Assembly: GCA_021827485.1 (NCBI GenBank)
Contig: JAKAVM010000106.1
Coordinates: 45,277 to 109,276, forward strand
Source: Actinomycetes bacterium
Lineage (GTDB): Bacteria; Actinomycetota; Acidimicrobiia; Acidimicrobiales; JAKAVM01
DNA: 64,000 nucleotides
Direction: 5' to 3'
Part shown: positions 14,670 to 44,765 of the stretch, in pieces
How positions within the stretch are numbered: position 1 is the stretch's first letter
Layout: each line of letters opens with the position of its first letter
Position numbers and translations under genes: made by a program
The notes under the pieces: generated by a model
Databases searched by the model: none
What the model was told of the DNA's origin: nothing
Seen by the model: only the letters and a program-made list of their open reading frames with translations

Positions 14670-17416
14670 TCTTCATCTCCTATTTTGGTTAGGTTCACAT
14701 AAACAGCCCGGTCGGCCGGAACAGGTTGCCAGCCAAAAGGGATATATCGTAAGTGTCCGTATTTTCCGACCAGATGTAGCCATTTCACCATGCCGGGTTC
14801 TACCTCATTTGAGCCTTTCCACTGTGAAAACATGTGTGGCTCAAATCCGTTATAGACGACAATTTGACCCGGTCGAATCCGTGGTGTGATTCGAACCATT
14901 GCACTAAAGTCACCATGGTCGTTACTGACTCTGACAAACTCGCCATCTTCGATGGAGATAGTGGCTGCATCTAGAGTGTTTAGGATAACCAGTGGTCTCC
15001 CGCGGTGTGTTCCTAATAGAGCGGAATTACCCATGTTGATAGAATGTACTGTCCAGCGAGAGTGACCACTGGTCAAGACATATTGACCATCTCCACCTTG
15101 TCGAGGAGGTTCTTTGTGGCGCGGAAGGTGCTCATCTGCCTCTAGAAACCAAGGATGGTCTATATAAAACTGAGCACGACGCACGAGAGTTGGAAACGGA
15201 AGACCTTTTTCAGTATGCCAAGAGAAAGCAGTCATGACTTTGTCCGGCAATACGTCGGAGGCAACAGATAATCCCGGAGAGAAAACTCCTAAGTCGGTAA
15301 AGCGGATACTTCCCTTGTCTCGAAGCGAGGTTATCGAGCTATCACGAGGAAGGGTACCCGCCATTGCTGAGTCACGTACCCACTCATCGAGGACATCTTC
15401 GTCAGATGCGAAAGCTCCTTGTAATACAAAATCTTTGCCGAGTGTGTCAAGATTGCGGGTAACTCTTCTTGAATCTACGTAGTTGTGCATACCTCGAGAT
15501 AGCGCTTTTTCTGATATATGATTCGCTAGCTCGCTGAAAATTTCCCACTCACTCCTAACGTTTTCAGGGGGAGGGACGGATTTGTCAGAGAAGGAAAGCC
15601 GGAGCATGTGAGTAATCGGATATTGTAGGTTCACTCGTTCATAGGCCATTGCGGCAGGCAGGATTAGATCAGCATGAAGAGCTGTAGTAGACATCCGGAA
15701 GTCAACCACGATTATTTTTTCGAGTTCATCCCATAAGTCGGACAACATTCTATTTCGTCCTCCTCGAGTCCTTCGCAAGGGGTTAGTGCCGACACAGAAT
15801 AGGACTTTTGGAGTGGTTGATGCACTTGGTCTGTTTACTCCTCCCCACCATCCTTTCCGGGTTGCTTCTGTTAGGTAAGACTCGAAATCTTTAGTCATGG
15901 ATTTATCAGACCAATCGGGATTGTTCCATGATTGTTCGTATCCACAGTGGTAGTAGTTAAAAAATATTGGGGGTGCGCTGGTGCCAGAAGCCGCAGCGAG
16001 GTGGATAAGTTGACTTCCTGCTATCTCGTCAGTCATAGATGGATCGGATGAACGAATCTCCTCTACGGCTCGATCAATTCCATCGAGAATTCGGGCAGTT
16101 TCCTCAACCCCTTTGGCTGACTTCATGGAAAATAGCAAGTACCCATCCAGCCCAGCTAAGGCAAGACCTTGAATACCTGTCCCGGGTTTACCCCAATTGC
16201 CAGTTAAGGCGGCAAGTAAGCACATCGAGCGCTCCATTAGGTCGCCGTGGAAATACTTTGGTCCGTTGAAACCTTCGAGGATTTTTGTCGGTTTAGTCGC
16301 AACAAGATGCGCAAGATGCCGAATCATTTGAGGACTAACTCCACAAATAGGGCTAGCCAGTTCGGGGGTATAGCCTTCCAGGCGCTCCTGGAGAAGTGTA
16401 AATACTGTTGTCACTTGCGTACTTATCCCACTGGCAAGTGTAACGGTCCAAGTCCCGACTAATTCAGGCGAAATGTCCCCCAACACAAGGCTATCTCGTC
16501 GAGCTTGGGAGAGCCCGAGTGACTTATCCCAGTGGTAGAACTGGTCATCACTTCCATCGACGGACATATCACTTGATCTAAGAAATCGCCGACTCTCTTT
16601 GACGACTAAGAGAGGTAAGTCTGACTGTGAACAAACAAAATCTTCATCCATCATTTGTTCTTCAATAATTACTTGACACATCGAAAGTGCGAGAGCCGCA
16701 TCACTACCAGGTGTGATTGGAACAAAGTAGTCAGAGTGGATTGCTGAAGCATTATAGTCAGGTGCAATCGCAATTACAGTAGCTCCCCGATATCTATTCT
16801 CGGAAATAAAGTGATGATAAGGGATAGATGTATAAGCAGGATTCGAATGCCATTGTAGAATTAGCTGTGATTTGAAAGTATCATCTACCGTGCTAGCGCA
16901 TGAGAACTTTCCAAAAGTTATGTGTTGGCCCGTCGGCAAATCGTTGACTAATCCATTTGCATCGAGCGTTACCGCACCCAATAGGCCTGCCAATCTCAAG
17001 AAAGACGCTTGGCTCATCAGTCCCCCCTCAACACTCTCTTCAAAGATCACTGAGTCTGAACCTTCTTCAACTATAGCGTCCAAGATCGAATCTGCTATTT
17101 CATCTAAAGCCTCTTGCCACGAGATCTCTTCCCACTGGCCAGACCCGCGTTCTCCTACTCTGCGAAGAGGGTGTAGGATACGATCTGGTGACGTGAGCTG
17201 GCGACTCCAAGCGCTCCCTTTTTGGCAGCCCAGCGGATTGAGGTCAGGTACTTGGCTTTCGATTGATTCAATATGACCACCCTGCTCTTCAAAAAGGACT
17301 TTACCGTCTCTAACATAAACTTTATAGGGACAAGCAGCTAAGCAATTAACACAGTGAGTTCCCCAGGCGGTCTTATCCCATGTCCAACGTGCTCGATAAG
17401 TCTCGGCAGTCCGCAC
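14666..17416 (-). CDS. Type-II DMSO-reductase-family Mo-bisPGD catalytic subunit, paralogue 2 (alpha2), no signal peptide
   Basis: 916 aa. RARWTWDKTAWGTHCVNCLAACPYKVYV plus NPLGCQKG form the FS0 His/Cys motif. NDLPTGQHITFG sits at the NarG Asp-ligand segment. Alignable along its length with alpha1. GTG start inside the last unit of a 16-bp repeat. Confidence 0.85.
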   Translation of the reverse strand: MRTAETYRARWTWDKTAWGTHCVNCLAACPYKVYVRDGKVLFEEQGGHIESIESQVPDLNPLGCQKGSAWSRQLTSPDRILHPLRRVGERGSGQWEEISWQEALDEIADSILDAIVEEGSDSVIFEESVEGGLMSQASFLRLAGLLGAVTLDANGLVNDLPTGQHITFGKFSCASTVDDTFKSQLILQWHSNPAYTSIPYHHFISENRYRGATVIAIAPDYNASAIHSDYFVPITPGSDAALALSMCQVIIEEQMMDEDFVCSQSDLPLLVVKESRRFLRSSDMSVDGSDDQFYHWDKSLGLSQARRDSLVLGDISPELVGTWTVTLASGISTQVTTVFTLLQERLEGYTPELASPICGVSPQMIRHLAHLVATKPTKILEGFNGPKYFHGDLMERSMCLLAALTGNWGKPGTGIQGLALAGLDGYLLFSMKSAKGVEETARILDGIDRAVEEIRSSDPSMTDEIAGSQLIHLAAASGTSAPPIFFNYYHCGYEQSWNNPDWSDKSMTKDFESYLTEATRKGWWGGVNRPSASTTPKVLFCVGTNPLRRTRGGRNRMLSDLWDELEKIIVVDFRMSTTALHADLILPAAMAYERVNLQYPITHMLRLSFSDKSVPPPENVRSEWEIFSELANHISEKALSRGMHNYVDSRRVTRNLDTLGKDFVLQGAFASDEDVLDEWVRDSAMAGTLPRDSSITSLRDKGSIRFTDLGVFSPGLSVASDVLPDKVMTAFSWHTEKGLPFPTLVRRAQFYIDHPWFLEADEHLPRHKEPPRQGGDGQYVLTSGHSRWTVHSINMGNSALLGTHRGRPLVILNTLDAATISIEDGEFVRVSNDHGDFSAMVRITPRIRPGQIVVYNGFEPHMFSQWKGSNEVEPGMVKWLHLVGKYGHLRYIPFGWQPVPADRAVYVNLTKIGDEE

Positions 17417-17485
17417 CTTAGCTTGACACCACCTTAGATTGATACCACCTTAGATTGATACCACCTTAGCTTGACTGCACCTTAG
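17414..17485. repeat. Tandem 16-bp repeat x4.5 (minus strand CTAAGGTG + 8 nt) filling the delta/alpha2 intergenic gap
   Basis: CACCTTAG recurs at 17414, 17430, 17446, 17462 and 17478. The first minus-strand unit carries the TAA stop of the chaperone gene. The last carries the GTG start of alpha2. Confidence 0.95.
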
Positions 17486-18174
17486 TTCGACTGAGGCGAT
17501 GGTGCCAGGATAGTGTCGAGGTAGATAATATCCTTGGCGACAAAGACTTCAAGGTAACGAAGACCCCACGCAATTGCCGGGATCAGAGTCGTGGGGTTTG
17601 AACGTGCGACGAGCCCTGTTACGAGACCTTCAAGGAAGCGAGAAAGAAAATCTGCCTGCGCCCTACGATAAGAAGAGCGAAGGCGGTCAGAGCTTGTGGC
17701 CGCTTCCTTAAAGCACAGAAATCCCATGAACTCAAGCTCAGTGGATAAGTGGTCTGCCCTATGAGCATCTGAGGCGCCTGTAGCCAGACCGAAATACTCA
17801 TACTCACGCTGCACATCATGAATAGTTTGTGCATTATCGCCACTATAAAAACTAGATTCGAGGGGAGATCCATTTTCATCAGATCCCTGGAACGCTAAAG
17901 ACCACTGAGACTCAAATTCTTGGCTATCAAGGCCAGAAAGATCAATCGGAAGGTCGACATCTAATTTATATGGCAGCAGCTCAGATGCACTTTCAAGCTC
18001 TTTGACCCAGATCCCATCGCGACTTTTTGCAAAATGACTAGAGTCAGCGCCACTAAACCATTTTGCAAAAAGTTGATATAACGCACTGCGAGAAGTTGTT
18101 TCATTTTCTTCAACTTCTTGCAGGGTTTCTCCTGCAGCTTTGATTTCTAAACCTGATAGTGAATATGTGAACAT
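17482..18174 (-). CDS. TorD/NarJ/DmsD-family redox-enzyme maturation chaperone (delta)
   Basis: 230 aa, acidic and helical. Sits after the beta subunit as in narGHJ and ebdABCD. SALYQLFAKWF and HLSTELEFMGFL resemble the TorD-family core. The call rests on position plus weak motif resemblance. Confidence 0.7.
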   Translation of the reverse strand: MFTYSLSGLEIKAAGETLQEVEENETTSRSALYQLFAKWFSGADSSHFAKSRDGIWVKELESASELLPYKLDVDLPIDLSGLDSQEFESQWSLAFQGSDENGSPLESSFYSGDNAQTIHDVQREYEYFGLATGASDAHRADHLSTELEFMGFLCFKEAATSSDRLRSSYRRAQADFLSRFLEGLVTGLVARSNPTTLIPAIAWGLRYLEVFVAKDIIYLDTILAPSPQSN

Positions 18175-18191: not shown

Positions 18192-19334
18192 CTAAGACCG
18201 ATTTGCAGTTCGTCTTGAAGTATCGATGCTTACTGCTACAGTTTCAGGTCTGCGATCGAGTGAAGCTGGGTCAGTTGTGTACGGCCCAAAAAGCTCATTC
18301 CAGTGGTAAACAATTAGAGTATCCAAGATTTCTGAGCTGCCTCCAGAGCGCACAGTATCAAGTTCGCTGCGAAGCTTATCCATAACCGCATGAACCTTCG
18401 GGCCAAAAAGACTTTCCAGATATTCAGGGGGAATTCGAGGAGTCTCATAGTCTATTGACATGTCATCGTTGAGGCGATATGGAGACAAAGGCGGGATATA
18501 AAAGATATTCGGCCCAGTTCCATATTCGGGGTGGAGCGGAAGAGCAATCTCCCATTCATGTACCAACTTGTGGATTGGACCATTCTTATCGTTTGCCATT
18601 CCGACAAAAACAAGTCGACCTGGGCACTGACGGGCGCACGCTGGTGCTACGCCAACTTCGAGCCTTGGGAAGCATAGAATGCAGTGCTGGGCTACATTGC
18701 GAGCGTAATTGAAGTAGATCTTCTTGTAAGGACAGGCCTCCATGCAAAAGCGCGAACCTTGACAGATCTCTTCATCGCGCAAAACAGCTCCATCTTCAGA
18801 TCTTTTGTACATTGCCCCGGATGGACATGCAGTTATGCAAACTGGGTAGGTGCAATGGTTACAAAGTCTCGGGAGATAAAAATAGTACGCGTTAGGATAT
18901 TCACCAGCACCTTGATCTTCGTCCCAGTTCATTCCCCATTTCGTAGTACCGTCGCCCTTGTCTTTAGGTGCTAAATGGACCGATCGACCTTTGCCTCCAT
19001 AGAATACTTCGTCATAATTAAACTCCCATCCGCCACCAAACTCCTCTCTTGTGGGTTGGTGCCCTGGATTTGGCTGGTTCTGATTCCACCCACCCCCCAT
19101 TTGCTCCCAAGCCTTCGGCGTGCCCTGGCCTGGCTGCGTGTTCACCGTCATCCACCACTGATGCTCTTCGCCCTCTTCCCTAGTCCACAGTACCTTGCAA
19201 GCAATGGAGCAGGTTTGGCAACCCATACATTTATTCAAGTCGAAAACCATCGACACCTGATGATCGGTTGCCAAAGATTCTCTGGTAACTTCCGAGTTAG
19301 CAGTTGCGTTATTTCCCTCTAGGCGATCTGTCAT
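18192..19334 (-). CDS. Type-II DMSO-reductase-family iron-sulfur beta subunit (NarH/EbdB-like)
   Basis: VSMVFDLNKCMGCQTCSIACKVLWT, CNHCTYPVCITACP, CQGSRFCMEACPY (NarH CxGWRxC-type group) and CILCFPRLEVGVAPACARQCP. Confidence 0.9.
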   Translation of the reverse strand: MTDRLEGNNATANSEVTRESLATDHQVSMVFDLNKCMGCQTCSIACKVLWTREEGEEHQWWMTVNTQPGQGTPKAWEQMGGGWNQNQPNPGHQPTREEFGGGWEFNYDEVFYGGKGRSVHLAPKDKGDGTTKWGMNWDEDQGAGEYPNAYYFYLPRLCNHCTYPVCITACPSGAMYKRSEDGAVLRDEEICQGSRFCMEACPYKKIYFNYARNVAQHCILCFPRLEVGVAPACARQCPGRLVFVGMANDKNGPIHKLVHEWEIALPLHPEYGTGPNIFYIPPLSPYRLNDDMSIDYETPRIPPEYLESLFGPKVHAVMDKLRSELDTVRSGGSSEILDTLIVYHWNELFGPYTTDPASLDRRPETVAVSIDTSRRTANRS

Positions 19335-19341
19335 TTTCTAT

Positions 19342-20046
19342 TTACAACCTTCCTGTTTGCTCTAAGCCGATCCACTGTGGACTTACTGATCCAATGCCTG
19401 CTCGCTCTTGGTTAGATCCATCCCAAATGGCGATCCCCATTTTCTCGATATTGTTAGCGCCTTCATACTCACCGGAAATTACGACCGTCCAATGATTGTC
19501 ACTCTTGAGAGCCTGGACACTGAGAGAGGCGGTTGTCGCAACGTCCTTATTGGACCTGACTGATTCGTTTAGATTGGGTCTAAAGACACCAGGGCCACTT
19601 GCATAAAGCTCTTTGATAGGTGGCAGATCACGCTGGATAGGAAGTTGATCGCGCCAGTACCATAGACGAACGGGTGCTTGGTGAGTACCTATTGTCAATG
19701 GCGCTGCTCCAGGCTGGTCTCCCTGGCCATTGGCTACAAAGTCAAGGGGGAAAAAAATAGCTGCCGCATCAGTGAACTCACCATCAAAGCCATCCTCTTT
19801 TTCGCTTGCGTTCCCATCAACCTTGTCCCATTCAAGACGAGCAAGTATCTTATTTCCACTGCGTGCAAGTGATAGTTGAGCAGATCGGGTCAATCCATAT
19901 TCGCGATCTGCCCATTTGGTTCTAATGTATGCATTGGGCTGGGAAGTTATCGGTATCGGGACTAGGGCGACTTGCTCTGTATCGATTCCGGACCAATCCA
20001 ATTCCAATAAATTGTTTGTACTTCCTTTTATTTCTGACACATTCAT
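19342..20046 (-). CDS. EB_dh/DOMON-like gamma-type subunit, no signal peptide
   Basis: 234 aa. LARLEWDK...FTDAAAIFFP...VRLWYWR...WTVVISGEY...MGIAIWDGSNQERAG..SPQW follows the ethylbenzene-dehydrogenase gamma (heme-b subunit) pattern. The N-terminus MNVSEIKGSTNN is not a signal peptide. Confidence 0.6.
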   Translation of the reverse strand: MNVSEIKGSTNNLLELDWSGIDTEQVALVPIPITSQPNAYIRTKWADREYGLTRSAQLSLARSGNKILARLEWDKVDGNASEKEDGFDGEFTDAAAIFFPLDFVANGQGDQPGAAPLTIGTHQAPVRLWYWRDQLPIQRDLPPIKELYASGPGVFRPNLNESVRSNKDVATTASLSVQALKSDNHWTVVISGEYEGANNIEKMGIAIWDGSNQERAGIGSVSPQWIGLEQTGRL

Positions 20047-20050
20047 TTTT

Positions 20051-22948
20051 TCAATGCCTTCCTAACTCCGAATTAGCTTTTGCAAAATCACAAGGTACTC
20101 CTCGATCAACCGGTATTGGTTGCCACTCAGCCATTGTGTAGTTGATGTGACCATACCCTCCAGCAAATGCGATCCACTTGACCATGCCTGCCTCAATTTC
20201 ATTAGCACCACTCCACTGATCGTACTGATGCCCATCCCAGCCGTTATATGAAATAATCTGACCAGGGCGAACCCCAGGGGATACTTTTGCTCGAGCGGTA
20301 AATGAAGATATATCGTTCCATACTCTTATGAGGTCGTTATCTTCTACTGAGCGCTGTTTCGCATCGATAGGGGATACTTCTATGTTTGGTTCACCGCGAT
20401 GAGTTTGAAGAATGATCGGATTCAACTGATTCATCGAATGAATACTCCACCTGTTATGTCCTGAGGTCATACGAAGTGGGTGATTTCCGCCAGAGAGTGG
20501 ATTGGGCTTGTGACAGGGAAGCTCTTCGTGGGCTTCAATCCACCAGGGGTGATCAATATAAAACTGCGCACGTCGAGCGTATGTCGGGAATGGAGCCCCT
20601 TTTTCTAGATGATCTCGAAAAGGCGTATGTGTCTTGTGGGTTTCAAACGGTGACGCCTGGGCCAAGGCAAACGGACTACCGCCCCATCCAATAAAGCGTT
20701 CATGGCCGACTTCACGCATCCTTGCAAGGTCAGTACGTTCTGGAAGTGTACCAGCGTAAGCCGAATCACGAATTATCTCATCAAAAAGCTTTTCCTCACT
20801 TTCGATGTAACCGTTCAATGTAAATGAATTCCACATCTCGTTCGGAATAAAAGATGCTCCAAATCTATTGGTGTACTCAGTAATTCCTCTAGCTTGTGCT
20901 CGCTCGGCAAATCTTTTCAGTATGATTTGGTAAATTTCCCACTCAGGTTTTGCTTCTCCAGCTGGATCGGCATTTCTGTCTGAAAAGGTTAGATTCATCA
21001 CATGAGAAGTCGGTATGTGTAGGTTAACCTTCTCATAATGCTGGGCAGCTGGCAGAACTATGTCAGAGTTGAGGCCAGTAAAATTGAGTCGGAAGTCGAT
21101 AGATACTATTAGGTCAAGCCTGTCCCATAGATTTTCACCTAACTGGGTCCAACCTCCCCTTGTGCGACGGAGCATGTTACCCCCGCACTCAATCAACATT
21201 TTAGGAGGCTCGTCTGGCCGTGGATGATCTAGACCTTGCCACCAACCGTTGGCTATTGCTTCCTCGAAGTATTCGTTGAATTTACGCGGTAGGGATTCGT
21301 CCCCCCACTCGGCCTTTTCCCAACGCTCCTTGAAGCCTCCTTGCCAGTACCACCAAAAGGCTGGAGGAGAACCAGTTTGCCTAGTCCCGGGAAAGATTCC
21401 CTGACTCTTGGCGATCATGCGCGATAACTCTCTCACAGCAAGCTCATCGGTGGTGATACTGGGATCTGCTTTGCGAAGAGCTTCTGTTGCAGCTTGTTGG
21501 GTGGAGAATAGCTGTTCTGCACCTTCAACACCGGGGACGGTTTTGACCATAATCGTAAACATGCCATCTGCCATACCAATCATCCATGATCGGATCCCCG
21601 TGCCAGCCTTGCCCCAATTGCCAGTAACAGCAAGTAGAAGGCACATAGATCTTTCCATAAGGTCACCGTGGTAGTACTTGCAGGAATTCCATCCCAACAT
21701 TATGTCTGTGCGTTTCGAAGCAGCTTTACGCGCCAACGTTCGCACAACATCAGGGTGGATTCCAGTAATACTTTGTGCCTTTTCGGGTGTATAGTTCGCG
21801 TTTACGTGGTTTTTCAGCAGCTCCATGACTGGTGAAACCTGAACCTGCGTCCCATCACCGAGTGTAACTTGGTAGGTTCCTTCCAGGGCAACACTTCTTC
21901 CGTTCAATAGCAAGTTCCCCCTATTTGCTTCTACTAGACCGCTTTGAAGATCCCAGTGATATAGCTGGTCCTCTCTGGCCTTTGAGGTGGTCGCGCCCTC
22001 TTGGCTAGGTGCGTTCTCATCTGTTGACTCAAGGTCGCATTGACGCAAGAAGCGCTTATTGTCGAGTCGGACCAAGCACGGTAGATCAGTTTGCTCTGAG
22101 ATAAATGTTGTATCGGCGATCTCTTCTTCGAGAATTACTTGAACCATTGCTAGAGCAAGTGCTGCATCGGCTCCCGGAACAATTGGAACATGATAGTCGG
22201 CGTGCATATGTGATGCATTTAGGTCAGGAGAAATCGAAACGACTTCTGCTCCCTTATATCGTGCTTCGAGCATGAAATGATAGAACGGAATGCGAGTGAA
22301 AGCGGGATTCATGTGCCAAATCATTATGATCGGAAAGTGGAACCAGTCATCAGCTGATGAAGCAGGATTCCACTTTCCAAAAGTCTCATGGAGTCCAATC
22401 GAAAAATCGTTAAACGATGGGTGTAGGTCGAGAGTTCGTCCTCCAATTACATTGAAGAAACGGTCTGTTGGCATAACCGCGGCAACCTCAGGTGTTCCCT
22501 CGCGCACTATTGACTCAGGGCCAGCTTTTTCAATAGCATCCAACATGCCATCAGCAATCTCGTCAAGGGCTTGATCCCAAGATATCTGTTCCCATTTACC
22601 CTCCCCACGTTCACCAACTCGCTTGAGTGGATGTAAGACTCTATCGGCCTGATAAAGTTGCTGACTCCAAGAGGCACCCTTGTTACATCCCATAGGGTTG
22701 AAGTCAGGAACCCCATCTTCAACTACGGAAAATGTTGCCGCAGCCTCTTCGCGAACTACTTTGCCATCTGTGACATAGACTCTGAAAGGACAGTTGCCGG
22801 GATAGCAATCGACGCAATGAGTGCCCCAACCGACTTTATCCCAAGCCCAACGTGATCGTAAGTTTGCCTCGCTTGCTTCATGTGGCGAAAACGCAACCGT
22901 TTCGCTTGGTGCTTTGCTTTCCACGGAACTACTTTTTGCAAGAGTCAC
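20051..22948 (-). CDS. Type-II DMSO-reductase-family Mo-bisPGD catalytic subunit, paralogue 1 (alpha1), no Tat signal
   Basis: 965 aa. RSRWAWDKVGWGTHCVDCYPGNCPFRVYV plus NPMGCNKG form the FS0 motif. NDFSIGLHETFG sits at the Asp-ligand segment. The GTG start is preceded by AAGGAGG (plus-strand 22959-22965). No RR motif in the N-terminus. Confidence 0.9.
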   Translation of the reverse strand: MTLAKSSSVESKAPSETVAFSPHEASEANLRSRWAWDKVGWGTHCVDCYPGNCPFRVYVTDGKVVREEAAATFSVVEDGVPDFNPMGCNKGASWSQQLYQADRVLHPLKRVGERGEGKWEQISWDQALDEIADGMLDAIEKAGPESIVREGTPEVAAVMPTDRFFNVIGGRTLDLHPSFNDFSIGLHETFGKWNPASSADDWFHFPIIMIWHMNPAFTRIPFYHFMLEARYKGAEVVSISPDLNASHMHADYHVPIVPGADAALALAMVQVILEEEIADTTFISEQTDLPCLVRLDNKRFLRQCDLESTDENAPSQEGATTSKAREDQLYHWDLQSGLVEANRGNLLLNGRSVALEGTYQVTLGDGTQVQVSPVMELLKNHVNANYTPEKAQSITGIHPDVVRTLARKAASKRTDIMLGWNSCKYYHGDLMERSMCLLLAVTGNWGKAGTGIRSWMIGMADGMFTIMVKTVPGVEGAEQLFSTQQAATEALRKADPSITTDELAVRELSRMIAKSQGIFPGTRQTGSPPAFWWYWQGGFKERWEKAEWGDESLPRKFNEYFEEAIANGWWQGLDHPRPDEPPKMLIECGGNMLRRTRGGWTQLGENLWDRLDLIVSIDFRLNFTGLNSDIVLPAAQHYEKVNLHIPTSHVMNLTFSDRNADPAGEAKPEWEIYQIILKRFAERAQARGITEYTNRFGASFIPNEMWNSFTLNGYIESEEKLFDEIIRDSAYAGTLPERTDLARMREVGHERFIGWGGSPFALAQASPFETHKTHTPFRDHLEKGAPFPTYARRAQFYIDHPWWIEAHEELPCHKPNPLSGGNHPLRMTSGHNRWSIHSMNQLNPIILQTHRGEPNIEVSPIDAKQRSVEDNDLIRVWNDISSFTARAKVSPGVRPGQIISYNGWDGHQYDQWSGANEIEAGMVKWIAFAGGYGHINYTMAEWQPIPVDRGVPCDFAKANSELGRH

Positions 22949-23082
22949 GGAGTAACGACCTCCTTATACATTGAGAAACACTGAGAAAGATTTTGTAGTT
23001 TTGTACCAGACAAATATACGAGCTAATCTAAGCCTGTAATAGAGCCGAAAGTCCCATAGCATTTGCACGGATTGTGGTTGAA

Positions 23083-23208
23083 GGTTAGCGGTGCCCGATT
23101 AGAGGTGCCCGATTAGCGGTGTACAATTTGAGATGTCAGATTAGAGGTGCCCGATTAGCGATGTACAATCTGAGATGTCAGATTAGAGGTGCCAGATTAG
23201 AGGTGCCA
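23083..23208. repeat. Nine tandem 14-bp units (consensus GATTAGAGGTGCCC; 42-bp super-period) in the divergent intergenic region
   Basis: (G/A)(A/G)TTAG starts at 23083, 23097, 23111, 23139, 23153, 23181 and 23195. Degenerate AAT(T/C)TGAGATGTCA units sit at 23125 and 23167. A stop codon in every unit closes all frames. Confidence 0.95.
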
Positions 23209-23216
23209 GAGAGTAA

Positions 23217-23849
23217 GTGGTTATGAGCAATTTGCTAGCTTCCGATCAGGTGCCAGTAACTGGACGTTTACAAAAAGCCACGGATTTCTTTCGTTGCTTC
23301 CCCGCAAGGCGTCGAGTCGGATTAGGAATGGGCCAAGTATTCATTGACTTTATGGAGTGGGAGATCTCTAGCGGACGCTTGTCTGACAGTATGGGATCGC
23401 CATGGTGGATGGCCGTTAATTGGATGATGATTGTTGATCTATCAAATACAATGAGACAATCGCCAGAAGCGGAAAAATTCAGATACACAATAGGACAAGA
23501 TAACATTAGAAACTCGCCATGGGATATATATCTTCAGTCTGATATAGCCAATGAAAAGGAACTGTTCTGGCGAGCGCATCAAAACTCTTTATCAAGAGCG
23601 GTCGAGCTGGCAAGCCCACTATTGGAAAGCGAAGTTGTAACTGAGCAAAGGTTTATCCAATTGAGTCTGGAAATAGTTGATTTTGTTGCAAGCTCCAAGG
23701 ATCTTGGAGACGCTGCAACACTCAAACAGTCACTAGACAAATTCTACCCGTCTAGCTATCCCATTACTCTCGACGATCTTGAAAGTCTTGAGTGTAGTCT
23801 AATACTTCTTGCGGGGGAAGAGAATACCAACCAAGCGATACTAAGATAA
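23217..23849 (+). CDS. Hypothetical protein
   Basis: 210-aa ORF with protein-like composition and no motif recognised. Its 3' end overlaps the ctaA 3' end by 86 nt (convergent), so its extent is uncertain. Confidence 0.4.
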   Translation: MVMSNLLASDQVPVTGRLQKATDFFRCFPARRRVGLGMGQVFIDFMEWEISSGRLSDSMGSPWWMAVNWMMIVDLSNTMRQSPEAEKFRYTIGQDNIRNSPWDIYLQSDIANEKELFWRAHQNSLSRAVELASPLLESEVVTEQRFIQLSLEIVDFVASSKDLGDAATLKQSLDKFYPSSYPITLDDLESLECSLILLAGEENTNQAILR

Positions 23850-24663
23850 CTAAGGTAATCCAAATACCCGCTGCAAATGCAAGGTGAATATCTTGGAGTG
23901 CACTGGGAGCTTTGAAGATAGCCGAGGCTGCCCCAACCCCAATCTGTATACATAACAAACCTGCTAAGGCATAACTAACAAGGTAAAGTCGGGGGACATC
24001 ACGCCAGTCTTTCAGTGCGCTGTAAAGAAACAGTCCAATTGCGATGGAAGCAATCAAGACAATGCTTCTATGGGCCAATTGTGTAAGTCCAAGGGGCGAA
24101 AACATCTCTTTGAAACTACATATTGGCCATCCGGGACAGGACTTCTCCCCACCTCCATCCACAACGATCGAACCTGAAATCATGACTAGAAAGGTCGCGA
24201 CTAAAGCCACAAAACTTTGATAGGACCGAAAGCCCGGCAGAAATTTCTGCTTTGCACCAAAGGTTTTACAAGTAGCAGAGACCCCTTCAACCTCGGGAAA
24301 AATTGAAGCAACATAAGTAACGGTCGTTGCTCCGGCAAATACCAGGCCTGTGATCAAGTGGAGTGCCACGGTAATTGGGGCATTATGGGTTATCACCGTG
24401 ACAGCACCTAGCACGACTTGGACAAGAATCAATACAACCGAACAAATGGACGGAAGCATCATCTTATTCAGTCGAGGACGGTGCATGCGCACTAATAAGA
24501 AAGTTGCAATCACAAGCACAGTTACAATGGATGCAAGGTAGCGGTGCGATTGTTCCATCTGGGCATGGAATCCATGAGTAGGTGCAACGTTTCCATAACA
24601 TAGGGGCCAACCAGGACATCCCATCCCTGAATTAGTTACCCGAACCGTGCTGCCTAGAACCAA
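23764..24663 (-). CDS. ctaA: Heme A synthase (CtaA/COX15 family)
   Basis: VRVTNSGMGCPGWPLCYG plus a second GGGEKSCPGWPIC pair, and several conserved His in TM helices. The listed TTG start would delete TM1. The frame stays open upstream to 24738 (see findings). Confidence 0.85.
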   Translation of the reverse strand: MVLGSTVRVTNSGMGCPGWPLCYGNVAPTHGFHAQMEQSHRYLASIVTVLVIATFLLVRMHRPRLNKMMLPSICSVVLILVQVVLGAVTVITHNAPITVALHLITGLVFAGATTVTYVASIFPEVEGVSATCKTFGAKQKFLPGFRSYQSFVALVATFLVMISGSIVVDGGGEKSCPGWPICSFKEMFSPLGLTQLAHRSIVLIASIAIGLFLYSALKDWRDVPRLYLVSYALAGLLCIQIGVGAASAIFKAPSALQDIHLAFAAGIWITLVILVSLGWYSLPPQEVLDYTQDFQDRRE

Positions 24664-24878
24664 GAGGGCATAAGTTGCAATTACGGTGAGTAGTGCTACT
24701 ACTCGTGTTGTACGTTCTGAATAAATGGTGTTACAAATCTAGAGGCAAAGAGCGGCAAATAATAGGGACTTCTGGCCCTGTTCCTGAAAAAAATCAGTTC
24801 CTAGGCTGGTAAGCGGCCGATTGAGACAGCAAGACATAATCTGTATTGTTGTCGCTTTTTGCTGATTGGAGATAGCAA

Positions 24879-26615
24879 GTGTCAGATGAGCGCTTTGATG
24901 TGGTAGTAATTGGAGGAGGCCACAATGGCTCCACAATCGCTGCCTATTTGGCCAAGTCCGGTTTATCAACCTGTGTGTTGGAGAGCCGCCCTGAGTGTGG
25001 TGGGGGCCAAGAGAATACAGAGGTCCGACCGGGATTTCGGATTGACCCCCATGCAACCTACCTATATGGAGGTGCAGCTCCGGGCTTTGACCAGCTAGAG
25101 CTTTGGAAATACGGGATGCGCATGGTTTATTACGCATCTATGGCTGGAGTTGCGACCTTGGACGGTCAAGCCGCCAATCTAGGTGGACGGTGGCGGCCCG
25201 ATCTCGGGGATGCAGCGATCAAACGCTATTCGCCAAATGACCTGGAAGGCCCCGGTAGGATTTTTGACCAGTTAGGTGAAGGCCCATCGAGAGAGTTGCT
25301 CCGTGCACTGTTTTGGACCCCTCCTTTCCCTGAAGGTGCTGAGATAGATCCTAGAGACATGCCGTGGTGGAAGGTATTTCGTCAATATCTTCCAAATCTA
25401 TTTTTTGATGAACTTGTCGATATGAGTTACGTGGATTTCCTGGACAACTTTGTGCAGTGGGATCCACTGAAGGTGGTCGGCGCATTTGGCGCTTGGTATT
25501 GCGGTGCTCACCCGGATTGGGAAGGAATGTTACTTCAATCGCTTGGTGGAACACTTCTTTATTCCTATGCTTCGGGGGCCCCGCGCGGAGGTATGCACAC
25601 TTATGCGCATGCAATAATCCGATGTGCAATCGCCAATGGTGCCAGAGTAATGACAAATGCCCCAGTTGGAGAGATAATCGTCAATAACGGTCGGGCGGTT
25701 GGAGTTCGGCTCTCGGATGAGGCAGCATTCCCTGAGAAGACGATATGGGCGGATAAAGCAGTTATATCGGGAGTAGATGTAAAGCAAACCTTCCTCAAAC
25801 TTGTCGGTAAAGGACATCTAGACCCCTCTTTCACCCAGAGGGTAGATGACATATCGCTTAAAGGTGGAAGTTTATTTGTTATGTCGGTTATATGTCGGGA
25901 GTTGCCACGATATCACAATAAGGAGGAATACTTTCCTCAAGACGTTTATCCTTCATGTGTTATTGCTCCAGCGGACTCTTTTGAGTATTTTCGAACTCAA
26001 ACTCGCGATGCATATTCATACAAGAAGCCCCCAGAACTAACACCTGAACATCTCACTATGATGATATGCACGCACGATCCCTATGATTCGACGCGTTGCC
26101 CTGACGGATATCACGTACTGTCCCCAATATACTTGGAGGTGCCACCTCCACAATATGATGTAACAGGTGCGCAAGGCATCAACAGACACAAAGAAGAGAT
26201 AACTAAAGCGGCACTTGGAGTACTGCGTCAGTTGGCGCCGAATATGACGGAAGGAAATATAGTGGATGTATTCGTCAATACTCCATATGATTCGGAGTTC
26301 CGAAATGCTGGAATGGTCGGGGGCAACTGGTATGGAATTCGCCAGTCCGAGGACCAGTGGTTCTCAAACCGTCCACTCCCAGAGCTTTCGCGATATCGGA
26401 CGCCAATTGAAGGGCTGTATCTGTGCAACCAGACATCTCATCCTGGTGGTCTGTGTCTAATGGCGGTTCCATACAACCTCATGCACATTCTTATTGACGA
26501 TGGAATAGCTAACCCGGGGAGTTGGTGGTATCCGTCGCCCCACTACATGAAAGATCTAAAGCCAACTGCAAGTATATCCAGGAAAACAGCCTTGGAAACG
26601 GATGTCGTCAAATGA
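24879..26615 (+). CDS. FAD-dependent oxidoreductase, phytoene-desaturase (CrtI)-like, paralogue P1
   Basis: [38 protein letters not shown] (dinucleotide fold plus GG). C-terminal [18 protein letters not shown]. Confidence 0.85.
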
Positions 26616-28315
26616 GCGCAAGTAAAGCTGGTCTAGAAGGTGTGCAACCACTTAGGCGCAAGGAAGAGTTCAAAGTCGAACCATTAGAACATATTCTTGA
26701 TGAATTCCCGATCAAGTCCAAGTATGATGTAGTGATTATCGGGGCAGGACCTAATGGGTTGATGGCCGCAGCCTACTTGGCTAAATCAGGATTGAAAACA
26801 ATTGTCTTGGAACGCCGTCAGGAGATTGGTGGAGGACTAGCCACAGAAGAGACCCTTTTCCCTGGGTACTATACGAATCCTCATGCCTTTTATCACATGA
26901 TGACTGACTATATGCCGATAATGTCTGATTTCAACCTGCAAGACCATGGGCTCTATTTTGTAAAGCCCAATACTCAAACCTCTGCAATTTTCTCGGATAA
27001 CTCCACTTTGACCTTGTACAACCAGCATGAAGATACCAAAGATTCGATTGCTAAATTCTCTGCTAATGATGCTAGAAGATTTGGGAAAGTCATGCGATCT
27101 TGGCGCAAAATTGTGTCAGAAATCATAGCGCCCGGCACTTATGTTCCTGCTATGTCGCCAATCGACATGATTGAGCGTTTCGAACAAACCGAAATGGGTA
27201 GGGAAGTACTTAGGCTATCGGAGATGTCACCACTAGAGATAGTGGAAGAGAACTTTGAAGATGACAGAGTTCGCGCGCTGATGCTTTATGTATCTTGCAT
27301 GTGGGGACTTGACCCAAACGAAAGTGGTTTAGGTTTTATGGTACCACTTATGATAGATCGAGCAATGAACAAGGCCCAGTGCTATGGAGGTTCACACAAA
27401 CTTGCAGGTTCGCTCTCGCGTGAAATCTTGAAAGCTGGCGGTACGGTTCTTGACAATGCTCAAGTACAGAGAATTATTGTTGATAATGGCCAGGCAAAAG
27501 GAGTGGAACTTTACGATGGAAGAGTAATCGAGGCAAATGTAGTACTTTCTAGTTTGCCACCACCGATTACTTTTGGGAGTTTGATCGATCAGACTATGGT
27601 GCCCCAAGAGATGGCAGAGGCCGCCAACCTCTGGGAGTGGGATAAGTGGTCTTTTTTCACCATGTCAATGGCTACCGAGAAAGCTCCCTACTACCAGTGT
27701 GATGATCCATCGGTAAACGATGCACTGATGGTGATTATGGGCTTTGACACTTGCCAGGCGGTCCGAGAGCATTTTGCTGCGGCAATTGCTGGAGAGATTC
27801 CACGAAATATTGGAGGACATGCAAGCGTGGAGACTCGTTATGATCCAACCCTTCCTCGGATACCGGGCCATCACGTCAGCTTTTTCCAGATCCATGCTCC
27901 ATACGACGTGCCAGGGGGATGGGACGAACAAGGACCAATTCTAGCCAACGAACTTAGCGCATTGTGGAAGCGTTCCTGCCCTAATTTAGTGGACGAGAAT
28001 ATCGTTATGCGCTCTATTGAAACTCCAGTTGATATTGAGACTCGTTTGACGTCAATGGTTAGAGGATCAATCAAACACGGCGATTACCATCCCTTGCAGA
28101 TGGGAGTATTCCGCCCGCACGATTCTTGTGTGGCAGGTAGATCTCCTATTGAAGGCTTATACCTTTGTGGCGCGTCTTCTTACCCCGGGGGTTTAGTGAT
28201 TGGTGGACCTGGTTACATAGCAGCCGGATCGGTTGTAGAGGATCTTGATGTTGCTAAGTGGTGGAGCCCACCGCAATACGTTCAACGATATTCGGCACAA
28301 TATATGAGTTCTTAG
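26612..28315 (+). CDS. FAD-dependent oxidoreductase, CrtI-like, paralogue P2
   Basis: The ATG at 26612 overlaps the P1 stop (ATGA). [39 protein letters not shown]-terminal [18 protein letters not shown]. The ORF is open from 26522, but that portion lies inside P1. Confidence 0.85.
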
Positions 28316-34626: not shown

Positions 34627-35808
34627 ATGGACTTTGATCTAACCGATGAAATCGAGATGCTACGTACTAACGTCTTAGCTGCTGCGACAAATGTCCTGGC
34701 GCCTGGTGCCCGACTAGGGGAATCTCAAGGATGCTGGAGCGATGAAAAGGCAAAAGTGCTTTCTGGATTGGGCCTGTCCACCCTACTTATCCCAGCAACT
34801 CTAGGGGGAGATCAAGACCCTCTTGCATGCTCAGTCGCGTTAGAAAGCCTCGCATCAGGAGATGTAGGAGGATTACTTTATCATGACAAGCCGGGTCCGT
34901 TCTCAGGGGCACTAACAGTTCTGGGAGCAGTTATGCTAAATGACCAAGATTTGCCCCAAACAAAGAGTGCTTTAGCCGAGATTGTATCGAGGTGGGAGTT
35001 GGATTTCCCATTAGGTCTTATCGAAAGTGAATCGGCAATTGCCTTGGCAGTTGTCAGCTATTCTTGTGAGGATCTGAAAAGTATCGATTCAAGTGAGCCA
35101 ATTTCCGGTTCGCTTGCCTGGAGTAGTGGGCGGGTTGAGGATTGGATTTCTTCGACGGAAGATAAGAGTTCACTTTTATTCATTGTTGGTGAGGATTTTG
35201 TATCTCTTCTTCAAGCAAAGGAACTCTCAGTAAGTCCCTGCATTGCTGGAGCCTTTGAAGCTTCCGGTGGAGTGAGTTTATATTGGCAGGATCTTAGCAA
35301 ATCAATAGTTGTGGATGCTTCGCGGCAAGCAGCTATTTATGTTCGATCAGTTGCTCGGCTGTGGGTTGCTTCGGTGCTAATCGGAATCGGGCAAGCATCA
35401 CTTGATTACGCGATTGACTATGGTCGGCAAAGAGTAGTGTTTGGATCAGCAGTGGTCGATCATCAGGCAAATGCATTCGACTTGGCAGAGGCATCGGTGA
35501 AACTAGAGGCCGCTCGACTTGGCCTGAGATTGGGATGTAGGAACCTGGAAATGAAATTGGATTTCGCTGGAGAGATGAGTGCTTGCTGGCTCTTAACTCA
35601 AGCCTATTGTGAAGCTCGTGAAGCTTCTTTACGTGCCACGGATTTGAGTTTACAACTGCTTGGTGGGCATGGTTACATGAAAGATCATCCAGTTGAGAAA
35701 TGGTGGAGAGAAGCTCGCTTGCTTGTTCGACTTTTTGGAGGCGAAGACGCTGCTCTATCAGATCTCTCGACGATGGTTCTCCGATACAAAGATCCTCTGG
35801 TGCTCTGA
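34627..35808 (+). CDS. Acyl-CoA dehydrogenase-like protein lacking the catalytic Glu (probable non-catalytic partner subunit)
   Basis: Starts at MDFDLTDEIEMLR, a typical ACAD N-terminus. ACAD-like C-terminal helices. The YEGT catalytic-base position reads LFGGED. Confidence 0.7.
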   Translation: MDFDLTDEIEMLRTNVLAAATNVLAPGARLGESQGCWSDEKAKVLSGLGLSTLLIPATLGGDQDPLACSVALESLASGDVGGLLYHDKPGPFSGALTVLGAVMLNDQDLPQTKSALAEIVSRWELDFPLGLIESESAIALAVVSYSCEDLKSIDSSEPISGSLAWSSGRVEDWISSTEDKSSLLFIVGEDFVSLLQAKELSVSPCIAGAFEASGGVSLYWQDLSKSIVVDASRQAAIYVRSVARLWVASVLIGIGQASLDYAIDYGRQRVVFGSAVVDHQANAFDLAEASVKLEAARLGLRLGCRNLEMKLDFAGEMSACWLLTQAYCEAREASLRATDLSLQLLGGHGYMKDHPVEKWWREARLLVRLFGGEDAALSDLSTMVLRYKDPLVL

Positions 35809-35835
35809 TGGTTCTCCGATACAAAGATCCTCTGG
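35772..35835. repeat. 29-bp perfect direct repeat (period 35) spanning the junction of the two ACAD genes
   Basis: GATGGTTCTCCGATACAAAGATCCTCTGG at 35772-35800 and 35807-35835. Copy 1 encodes the C-terminus (MVLRYKDPL) of the first gene, and its TGA stop (35806-35808) runs into copy 2. Confidence 0.95.
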
Positions 35836-35842
35836 CGTTGTG

Positions 35843-37051
35843 ATGGAGCTATTCTTGGATGATCATACTAAGAAGGCAATAGAGTTGATTCGTTCACTTG
35901 GCAAAGAATATTTGCGCCCTCTTGGGATTGAAGCCGACACCTTGGCAAGAGCAATCCCGCCCGACCATCCATTCTTTCAACTAATTGCCAGCTCTGGTTA
36001 CATGTCAAGAGGGCTTGGCAGCGCTCAAGACACGGCAACCAAGTCTAAGTCAGGTGATACGAAGAATTCTCGACCCGGCACGTGGGTATGTAATGTTCTC
36101 ATTGCCGAAGAAGGATCGTATTGGGATAGAGGAGCGCTAGTGTCTCTGCCAGGTCCAGGGTTAGGCGGGCCACCAGTTCTACAGATGGGTACGCTAGAGC
36201 AACAATCGAGATTTCTTTCGGTTTTTCGACAAAGGGAACGTCCGGTATGGGCCGCATTTGCAATGACTGAACCAGAAGCGGGAAGTGACGTAGCCCGAAT
36301 TCGTACAAACGCACGTAGGGACGGAGACGAGTGGATTTTGAACGGACAGAAGATGTATTCCTCGAATTCACCGAGAGCAGAATGGGTCGTAGTCTTTGCG
36401 ACAATTGATATTGAATTGGGGAGGGCTGGACACCGAGCTTTTGTGGTCGAGCGTGGAACTAAAGGATTTGAGATACTTCGAATAGAGCACAAGATGGGAA
36501 TACGTGCATACGAGACTGCAAGTTTTGCTTTAGACAATTGCCGAATCCCTTATGAAAACTTGCTAGGAGGAGAGAATTATTATAGCGAGAAAGGCAAGAA
36601 GGGTTTCGAAGGTGCGATGAGCACTTTTAATGCCACAAGGCCAATAGTAGCAGCTATGGGCATTGGTATTGCTAGAGCTGCTTACGACATTGCGCTGAAG
36701 TTCGTCGAGGAGGATTATCCAAAGCACGCAGCCGGAAGGCTAAGAAAGGCTCTGGAGCAGTTGGCAGCTATGCAGAGAAAGATAATGCTTTCTCGATTAC
36801 TTTGCCTAAAGGCAGCATCACTGCTCGATCAGGGTAAGCCCAATGCCTTAGCTGCTTCTTCTGCCAAGCAGTATGCACCGCCAATGTGTCTTGAGGTTGT
36901 AGAGCACGCAACCGATATTTTGGGAGAAGCTGGAATTGCCAAGGATGGACTTTTGGAAAAGCTAGCACGGGATGTCAAGGCCATTGATATTGTTGAGGGC
37001 ACCCAGCAAATTCAGCGCCGAGTAATCTCAAAAAATATCATTTCACGTTAG
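35843..37051 (+). CDS. Acyl-CoA dehydrogenase (catalytic subunit)
   Basis: Starts at MELFLDDHTKKAIELIR. WAAFAMTEPEAGSDV, and IDIVEGTQQIQRRVI carrying the catalytic Glu. The ORF is open from 35693, but that part overlaps the upstream gene. Confidence 0.85.
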   Translation: MELFLDDHTKKAIELIRSLGKEYLRPLGIEADTLARAIPPDHPFFQLIASSGYMSRGLGSAQDTATKSKSGDTKNSRPGTWVCNVLIAEEGSYWDRGALVSLPGPGLGGPPVLQMGTLEQQSRFLSVFRQRERPVWAAFAMTEPEAGSDVARIRTNARRDGDEWILNGQKMYSSNSPRAEWVVVFATIDIELGRAGHRAFVVERGTKGFEILRIEHKMGIRAYETASFALDNCRIPYENLLGGENYYSEKGKKGFEGAMSTFNATRPIVAAMGIGIARAAYDIALKFVEEDYPKHAAGRLRKALEQLAAMQRKIMLSRLLCLKAASLLDQGKPNALAASSAKQYAPPMCLEVVEHATDILGEAGIAKDGLLEKLARDVKAIDIVEGTQQIQRRVISKNIISR

Positions 37052-37954: not shown

Positions 37955-38086
37955 GGCGTTGGTCCAGGGGCAGTCCACGGGGCGCTACACGCGGCAGTCC
38001 AATGGGCAGTCCACGGGGGTAGTCCACGGGGCGCTACACGCGGCAGTCCAATGGGCAGTCCACGGTGTTCCAGGGGCGTTCCACGC
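37955..38086. repeat. GC-rich tandem repeat, 49-bp unit x2 (one mismatch) with degenerate flanking partial copies; core (C/T)AGTCCA x6
   Basis: 37967-38015 and 38016-38064 differ at one base. AGTCCA at 37972, 37996, 38008, 38021, 38045 and 38057. Lies between the divergent crotonase and ctaG genes. Confidence 0.95.
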
Positions 38087-44671: not shown

Positions 44672-44743
44672 ACAGTGCAAGAATCTCGACAACAGATTAT
44701 TTCTATTTCTAAACAGTGCAAGAATCTCGACAACAGATTATTT
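44662..44743. repeat. Perfect 41-bp tandem duplication that includes the last codons and stop of cysD
   Basis: CTATTTCTAAACAGTGCAAGAATCTCGACAACAGATTATTT at 44662-44702 and 44703-44743. The cysD TAA is at 44669-44671. Confidence 0.95.
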
Positions 44744-44765
44744 CTGTCAAGTGAAATTATAAGCC

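Follow-up and report, generated by a model that had tools for sequence, protein, structure and literature searches.

Head-to-tail repeats of short units close to the starts of bacterial genes have been described in several biological contexts. Operator and iteron arrays combine spacing in helical repeats (7, 10-11 or 20-22 bp) with purifying selection and a cognate binding protein. In Mycobacterium tuberculosis, promoter tandem repeats (PTRs) made of 54-58-bp units lie 12-29 bp upstream of lpdA and cysG, and their copy-number variation is polyphyletic, occurs also within cultures and is missed by short reads (PMC12817950). The mycobacterial interspersed repetitive units (MIRUs) contain open reading frames (ORFs) whose ends overlap the adjacent genes (PMC3184786), and the TAACTGA heptamer repeats of Beggiatoaceae and cyanobacteria end a few nucleotides before start codons, where a translational action has been proposed for them (PMC4679880). 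Here we describe a tandem array of nine 14-bp units in a 64-kb stretch of DNA from an Actinomycetes bacterium of the class Acidimicrobiia (contig JAKAVM010000106.1, positions 45,277 to 109,276; hereafter the window). It lies between alpha1, the first gene of a molybdoenzyme (Mo) operon, and a divergently oriented gene, hyp210. This array is real, specific to its locus and to its lineage, polymorphic in length, and evolves fast and in concert; it is situated outside the conserved cis-element and the predicted promoter of alpha1, directly upstream of hyp210. We consider it fairly probable that it represents a lineage-specific minisatellite, or variable-number tandem repeat (VNTR), generated by slippage in the leader or promoter of hyp210. 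Its parts are the following:

23083-23208, plus strand: tandem array of nine 14-bp units, consensus GATTAGAGGTGCCC (Tandem Repeats Finder, TRF; unit alignment)
23097-23138, plus strand: copy 1 of the 42-bp super-repeat, units 2-4, of types A, B and C (TRF, period 42)
23139-23180, plus strand: copy 2 of the 42-bp super-repeat, units 5-7; the 6-unit allele (contigs L102 and L103) is shorter by the length of one super-repeat
23181-23208, plus strand: units 8 and 9, an identical A-type pair, and the break point of six Logan contigs, 28 bp before the ATG of hyp210

The sequence of the nine head-to-tail units agrees exactly with the list given in the initial annotation of the window. TRF reports the tract both with a period of 14 (9.0 copies, 72% matches) and with a period of 42 (2.6 copies, 92% matches, score 190), and at a lag of 14 its self-identity is 0.72, rising to 0.82 at a lag of 42, as against a maximum of 0.45 in 2000 shuffles over lags 5-59; the 42-bp super-repeat claimed earlier is therefore confirmed. 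Three unit types can be distinguished, namely A (GATTAGAGGTGCCC), B (GATTAGCGGTGTAC) and C (AATYTGAGATGTCA), and these are arranged as unit 1, two successive A-B-C blocks and two final A units. Five of the 14 positions, T3, G6, G8, T10 and G11, are invariant in all nine units. The earlier statement that every unit has a plus-strand TAG and a minus-strand TAA stands, except for units 4 and 7 (AATTTGAG and AATCTGAG), which have TGA on both strands instead.

Within the 64-kb window, the part of the genome over which dispersal was assessed, the unit motif is found nowhere else beyond chance, which at this scale speaks against the possibility, raised at the outset, that it is a dispersed repeat; the unit does not form a dispersed family of the MIRU kind there. 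A two-unit DNA pattern had no match in metagenome contigs of the Joint Genome Institute (JGI) or in viral contigs. A 9-mer of units 8 and 9, AGGTGCCAG, occurs four times in the window, against 0.6 expected, and one of these occurrences is 43 nt downstream, in hyp210 itself:

23248-23256, plus strand: AGGTGCCAG, 9-mer shared with units 8 and 9, within codons 9-11 of hyp210

Its recurrence inside hyp210 fits a local origin of the unit, and this copy is possibly a seed or a relic of the duplication.

Variation within the species was the next source of evidence. An exact-protein look-up with alpha1 gave no match, and loci were obtained through look-ups with hyp210, whose protein cluster comprises six variants at 99% identity or above, on many contigs. 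Through this cluster 25 loci were retrieved from metagenome-assembled genomes (MAGs) at NCBI (GCA_0273903xx-0273905xx), from ENA and from Logan assemblies. Nineteen contigs of the same species, in which the array is fixed, span it, 17 of them with nine units and two with six, and they fall into four haplotypes:

Haplotype A: 7 contigs plus the window, 9 units
Haplotype B: 9 contigs, 9 units
Haplotype C: 1 contig, 9 units
Haplotype D: 2 contigs (L102 and L103), 6 units, intergenic region of 232 bp versus 274 bp
Not spanning: 6 Logan contigs, which end at the identical pair of units 8 and 9, 28 bp short of the ATG

The length polymorphism for which the initial annotation had suggested a search is thus present in the population. 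Haplotype D is the exact loss of one 42-bp super-repeat, a whole-unit step between strains. Its two contigs differ by 4 single-nucleotide polymorphisms (SNPs) over 1821 shared bases, and hence are not one contig deposited twice; the 6-unit allele is tied to a single strain lineage, that of protein variant P0006.

The array also differs from its surroundings in rate of divergence. Between haplotypes A and B, 8 of its 126 sites differ (6.3%), which is about 5-fold above the value for four-fold degenerate sites (17 of 1267, or 1.3%; Fisher p = 0.001 for the excess), while none of 363 other intergenic positions in the 8.6-kb locus is changed (p = 1.6e-5 versus the array; window positions 19223-27849 against contig L080). 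Intergenic DNA outside the array is more constrained than silent sites (0/363, P = 0.007), and the array shows the opposite. Three of the eight array substitutions affect the five invariant positions of the 14-bp unit, which is the neutral proportion. At unit position 10 the two paralogous C units, 4 and 7, share one and the same substitution, T to C, which accounts for two of the eight and is a signature of concerted evolution.

Among other species, none in the databases has an alpha1 with an identity between 83% and 99%, and the nearest by this measure are represented by loci L015 (83%), L111 (80%) and L112 (78%); a scan of genome contigs, in which the source species was absent, had its best hit at 82%. 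The tandem array is absent from these three loci and from another 12 in which the two genes are likewise divergent; in all of the loci that have the hyp210/alpha1 pair the intergenic region measures 175-800 bp and contains no tandem array. Given its absence from relatives and the lack of unit copies elsewhere, the array is, on comparative grounds, specific both to the lineage and to the locus.

The position of the array relative to its two flanking genes depends on the following features:

20051-22948, minus strand: alpha1, molybdopterin subunit of a type II dimethyl sulfoxide (DMSO)-reductase-family (EbdA-like) enzyme, first gene of its operon
23223-23849, plus strand: hyp210, 208 amino acids (aa), divergent from alpha1, conserved partner gene with no Pfam family
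23040-23013, minus strand: predicted alpha1 promoter ATTACA-16-TATATT (consensus scan); TATATT also in L015
23040-23057, minus strand: conserved cis-element ATGGGACTTTCGGCTCTA (GGGACTTTnGnCYCTA), abutting the alpha1 -35 hexamer, outside the array

The general layout recorded previously, with the array between alpha1 (minus strand, GTG at 22948) and a hypothetical gene, is borne out. The start assigned to the latter, GTG 23217, is superseded by ATG 23223, which the gene callers of the public assemblies use (208 aa), and the array ends 14 nt before this codon. Its designation as the divergent promoter of the Mo operon finds no support, because the predicted alpha1 promoter and the cis-element (together 23013-23057) are outside it and the 140 bp that it takes up are those immediately before hyp210. 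The promoter match on the minus strand is the sole sigma-70-like match that the consensus scan returned in 22800-23400, and the same scan found none inside the array. The core of the cis-element, GGGACTTT/GTGACTTT followed by nGnCYCTA, occurs upstream of alpha1 in 8 of 70 relatives, whatever their GC content, against a background rate of 0.013 per 400 nt. The element, an imperfect dyad (GGGACTTTCGGCTCTA), is present in L015, L004, L005, L008, L011, L012, L049, L001 and L111, being kept in low-GC and high-GC relatives alike, and GGGACTTTnGnCYCTA is probably the real regulator site of the Mo operon. About 25 bp separate the end of this conserved regulatory module from the start of the array, which, counted from the inferred alpha1 start, covers approximately -65 to -190. 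As the array fills the 140 bp before hyp210, it must belong to the promoter or the 5' leader of that gene, and would form one or both of them.

As for hyp210, its homologues are divergent from alpha1 homologues in 13 loci (Acidimicrobiia and Chloroflexota MAGs), share the invariant motifs WE.S.R...GS.W, W.AH..S and YP..YP, and belong to a family of about 198 representative clusters; it is a real, conserved gene. A profile search against PDB and Pfam gave a marginal match to Leg1/monotreme lactation protein (MLP; E = 0.006) and no match to a DNA-binding domain, and the AlphaFold model is all-helical and of low confidence (pLDDT, the predicted local distance difference test, 50), too poor for a fold search. 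The hyp210 domain also makes up the C-terminal tip of some RHS-repeat proteins (for example P0178, 1701 aa, residues 1503-1667). The C-terminal tip of such proteins is the usual place of polymorphic toxin domains.

On the other side, the minus-strand operon alpha1-gamma-beta-delta-alpha2 runs from 22948 down to 14666 and encodes an ethylbenzene-dehydrogenase-like molybdoenzyme. Past hyp210 there are a CtaA-like gene and genes for CrtO/CrtI-like flavoproteins, a MerR-family regulator, an aldehyde dehydrogenase, acyl-CoA dehydrogenases and an enoyl-CoA hydratase. Two further repeats were observed on the alpha1 side. One is a 10-bp tandem duplication (2.1 copies of ACACTGAGAA) at 22968-22988, in the inferred alpha1 5' leader, at which L015 has one copy of the related ACATTGAGA. 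The other is the palindromic TACTTTAAGTA of the low-GC relatives L008 (2481-2506) and L012 (5776-5800), present there as two copies at a spacing of 14 bp, roughly 200 bp ahead of alpha1, and unrelated in sequence to the array.

If the array is indeed a slippage-generated minisatellite, its history might be reconstructed as follows. It would have been initiated at the 5' end of hyp210, by slippage during replication or by unequal recombination, with a 14-bp seed resembling GATCAGGTGCCAG, still present inside hyp210, multiplying into the three diverged unit types. The 42-bp ABC block would then have been duplicated, and subsequently the last A unit. Slippage or unequal exchange, presumably unusually active in the source genome, would keep the array going, and exchange within it would keep it in flux. 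TRF loci scoring at least 100 number 5 in the 64 kb of the window (78 per Mb) and 6 in 0.9 Mb of relatives' loci (6.7 per Mb; L001-L079, L111 and L112), an approximately 12-fold higher density of strong tandem repeats in the window; in low-GC relatives there are 0 in 91 kb. Each 42-bp block would add a -10-like hexamer TACAAT, Shine-Dalgarno (SD)-like GAGGTG motifs and an in-frame start. Each 42-bp copy does have one TACAAT (at 23122 and at 23164), retained in every haplotype, though the consensus scan recognizes no promoter in the array. In bringing such -10-like and SD-like signals the block may be tolerated and perhaps be mildly functional; one frame through it is open and stops on the hyp210 ATG, so that ribosomes would still be delivered to hyp210 and the block tolerated. 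Since 42 bp correspond to 14 codons and to 4.0 helical turns, copy-number steps of this size would alter neither the reading frame nor the face of the helix. Judging from position, any effect of the array would fall on hyp210 expression, and a dedicated DNA-binding regulator would be unnecessary.

Several points count against this reconstruction. Although its sequence turns over, the array is equally long in 17 of the 19 spanning contigs, possibly a result of selection on length, and the five invariant unit positions together with a super-repeat of 4.0 helical turns are what cooperative binding sites might show. A and C units are identical at only 8 of 14 positions, implying an array that is no longer very young and has nevertheless persisted. 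Every contig comes from short-read assembly, which may collapse or freeze repeats and mask variation within a sample. Finally, the effect on hyp210 is a putative one, deduced from position.

The foremost rival explanations concern translation, and start from the reading frames of the array, which the initial annotation had taken to be non-coding. In fact the frame from 23083 has a single stop, in unit 1, and a 35-codon ORF runs through the array. A 14-bp unit is not divisible into whole codons, so that TAG shifts to another frame from one unit to the next; precisely where it would fall into the 23083 frame the units are of the C type and have TTG or CTG in its place. The frames concerned are:

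23119-23226, plus strand: 35-codon open frame that crosses the array from a GTG start, MYNLRCQIRGARLAMYNLRCQIRGARLEVPESKWL (ORF listing)
23091-23102 and 23105-23116, plus strand: two mini-ORFs GTG CCC GAT TAG, with AG between them (read from the sequence)

It could be, though we rate the chance as low, that these constitute a translated leader or mini-cistron relay, with translation of hyp210 depending on that of the array and selection keeping the frame open. Ribosomes would load at GAGGTG, translate the two 3-codon mini-ORFs and then the 35-codon upstream ORF (uORF), stop at its TGA and reinitiate at the hyp210 ATG. GAGGTG, a hexamer that can pair over its whole length with the conserved 3' tail of 16S rRNA, is found 11 nt upstream of the uORF GTG at 23119 and likewise 11 nt upstream of the in-frame ATG 23161; from the hyp210 ATG the nearest GAGGTG is 17 nt away, which is a poor spacing. 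The uORF stop (TGA, 23224-23226) overlaps the hyp210 ATG (23223-23225) as ATGA, and ORF 23119-23226 is hence a small ORF overlapping the end of an adjacent gene in the same orientation, a type of overlap reported for MIRUs (PMC3184786). Furthermore, the frame is open in all four haplotypes, the 42-bp deletion takes out exactly 14 codons, and the only units without TAG, 4 and 7, are exactly those that would otherwise close the uORF frame. The same architecture recurs in the window in a 16-bp array (delta TAA-G, four times GTG xxx xxx xxx TAA-G, GTG of alpha2) and in a 35-bp duplication (TGATG, 11 codons, TGATG). However, an open frame over about 24 independent codons among six frames is statistically unsurprising, and steps of 42 bp, being 3 x 14, are bound to be in frame. 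In L015 the homologue has no uORF upstream, with 11 codons and no start there, and most of the differences in the encoded peptide from one haplotype to another are non-synonymous (5 codons versus 2). Most of the uORF would moreover remain untranscribed if transcription of hyp210 started at the TACAAT nearest the gene. A broader version of the same idea, to which we attach rather less credence still, is that the lineage repeatedly duplicates stop/start junctions in tandem and keeps only those that form chains of mini-cistrons, in which each stop is followed by the next start after 1-2 nt or overlaps it, with termination-reinitiation relaying ribosomes through the arrays. If true, the 14/42-bp array would be an expandable, repeat-encoded leader peptide whose 14-codon steps set the number of ribosomes at hyp210, a rheostat acting on translation and not on transcription. 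The 16-bp array (delta/alpha2) and the 35-bp one (acyl-CoA dehydrogenase pair) would then be the same device within operons, and such relays would offer a simple and evolvable means of tuning the translation of a downstream gene.

A second group of explanations places the function of the array at the level of DNA. A C unit and the beginning of the A unit that follows it make up an 18-bp palindrome (AATYTGA-N4-TCAGATT) in both cases, and the two copies are 42 bp apart:

23125-23142: 18-bp near-palindrome AATTTGAGATGTCAGATT, at the junction of units 4 and 5
23167-23184: 18-bp palindrome AATCTGAGATGTCAGATT, weakened in haplotype B

Under the regulatory interpretation offered in the initial annotation, a transcription factor on the 14-bp direct repeats or on these two palindromes would co-regulate the divergent hyp210 and alpha1 promoters. 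Such an arrangement might be suggested by the five positions invariant across nine units, by the separation of the palindromes by exactly 4 helical turns, by the location of the array in a divergent intergenic region and by a MerR-family gene 5 kb away. It nevertheless strikes us as improbable, for the array occurs in no other species with the gene pair, whereas a different element, GGGACTTTnGnCYCTA, is conserved; and it diverges about 5-fold faster than four-fold degenerate sites next to invariant intergenic DNA, with 3 of its 8 changes at the invariant positions. Haplotype B lowers both palindromes from 8 of 9 pairs (the value for window unit 7) to 6 of 9, and the 6-unit allele loses one palindrome and retains the other. 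A 14-bp spacing would set successive sites on different faces of the helix, only the 42-bp super-repeat amounting to 4.0 turns, and the motif was not found elsewhere in the window. The other proposal of the initial annotation, a slippage-prone spacer of the contingency type, would have frequent and reversible slippage switching or tuning expression within populations. The two length alleles in nature, the raised substitution and conversion in the tract and the breaking of six Logan contigs inside the array all accord with it, and the M. tuberculosis promoter tandem repeats, which vary at 10^-2 to 10^-3 per chromosome, are reportedly missed by short reads (PMC12817950). On the other hand, 17 of 19 spanning contigs from many samples are of equal length, and the only change seen is one 42-bp step in one strain lineage (P0006), a step that keeps both frame and helical phase. 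The array is outside the -35/-10 spacing of the one predicted promoter (23013-23040) and precedes the hyp210 ATG. The identity of units 8 and 9, a 28-bp pair, together with a short k-mer accounts for the Logan breaks. What survives of this proposal is the length polymorphism, as seen in the 6-unit allele; with one 42-bp indel allele and a tract that does not lie between -35 and -10, the contingency mechanism itself has, in our estimation, a slim chance of applying. An assembly artefact, lastly, might have been suspected from the error-prone assembly of repeats from short reads and from the contigs that end in the array. It is effectively eliminated by the 19 spanning contigs from NCBI, ENA and Logan assemblies, 17 of which give the same 274-bp intergenic sequence length across three assembly pipelines, with three reproducible sequence haplotypes.

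A structure at the RNA level was also considered. Rfam gave no match on the array at gathering scores and, at E <= 1, only a chance microRNA match (E = 0.76), while folding against shuffles yielded z = -2.0 for the plus strand, which is marginal, and z = +0.4 for the minus strand. The weak plus-strand signal comes from the two palindromic C-type units, in which the haplotype B changes break pairs without compensation, and a conserved RNA structure was rejected.

All five strong arrays of the window are at gene boundaries, and two of the others are clear duplications of stop/start junctions. The four arrays other than the one upstream of hyp210, and a comparable duplication in a relative, are:

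17413-17493, minus strand: 16-bp unit, 5 copies; the TAA of delta, G, four GTG-xxx-xxx-xxx-TAA mini-ORFs each followed by G, and the GTG of alpha2; identical in four other assemblies, the same junction having only about 25 nt in L015
35772-35846: 35-bp unit, 2.1 copies; duplicates the last 11 codons and the TGATG overlap between two acyl-CoA dehydrogenase genes, yielding an 11-codon bridging ORF (35808-35843) that overlaps the upstream TGA with its ATG and the downstream ATG 35843 with its TGA
44662-44745: perfect 41-bp duplication, 2 copies; includes the TAA of the upstream gene (44669-44671) and the sequence that follows, the GTG of the next gene being at 44766
37962-38065: hierarchical array of 12/24/49 bp (GGCAGTCCACGG-like), in a divergent intergenic region, 29 nt upstream of the enoyl-CoA hydratase gene
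5222-5288 of L111 (80% alpha1 identity, GC 65%): perfect 33-bp duplication, 2 copies, across the alpha stop and gamma start

From the last of these it follows that junction duplications are not confined to the source species. The 12-bp array is unrelated in sequence to the 14-bp array, and a look-up beside it gave only Logan contigs ending there. The AGAGGTG core of the 14-bp unit had been interpreted as a duplicated SD-GTG segment as in the 16-bp array. The two do resemble each other in that GAGGTG, GTG and a stop form mini-cistrons in both, but their sequence similarity is at chance, 32% of random windows scoring as well in the alignment, and homology of the 14-bp array with either the 16-bp or the 12-bp array was rejected.

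If the minisatellite reading is correct, the locus would provide a naturally segregating promoter or leader minisatellite in an uncultured, low-GC Acidimicrobiia-like bacterium, such repeats having been studied mostly in pathogens. The analysis also illustrates that public metagenome assemblies can be used as a population sample, in which constrained regulatory DNA (0/363 bp) can be told from an unconstrained repeat (8/126 bp), and it counsels caution against taking phased repeats in a divergent promoter for operator arrays.

Set against the known systems, the array shares different features with each of them. With operator and iteron arrays such as the PhoP DRu boxes, the omega heptads and ParR/parC it has in common many short head-to-tail units just upstream of a gene, but it departs from them in constraint, conservation and helical spacing. 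Simple sequence repeat (SSR) contingency loci, as exemplified by the 7-bp repeats of Haemophilus influenzae hmw1A, are likewise upstream tandem repeats whose number can be changed by slippage (PMC8262952); they have units of 1-7 bp that change singly and at high frequency, and they act between or beside mapped promoter elements, whereas the array has units of 14/42 bp and one rare allele. The TAACTGA repeats resemble it as direct repeats that contain a stop codon and are placed just before start codons, but they are one heptamer found at about 170 loci per genome, and the array is a single-locus 14/42-bp repeat. MIRUs are closer in that they are actinobacterial minisatellites with an ORF overlapping a neighboring gene, as the ORF of the array does in ending in ATGA on hyp210. 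They differ in being 40-100 bp long, in belonging to one sequence family at about 40-50 loci and in lying inside operons; the unit of the array is unique in the window, lies in a divergent region and, unlike a member of the shared MIRU family, is unrelated to the other arrays there.

The nearest precedent is provided by the promoter tandem repeats of M. tuberculosis (PTR/VNTR loci dop, lpdA-glpD2 and cysG-efpA). Their units are 54-58 bp long with a promoter in each, as opposed to 42 bp composed of three diverged 14-bp sub-units with only the -10-like TACAAT, and they vary within cultures, whereas the array is known from consensus short-read contigs. Yet both are actinobacterial, both vary between strains in whole-unit copy number in a manner that is hard to see in short reads, and in both cases copies of some tens of base pairs end near a start codon, at 12-29 bp in M. 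tuberculosis and at 14 bp upstream of hyp210.

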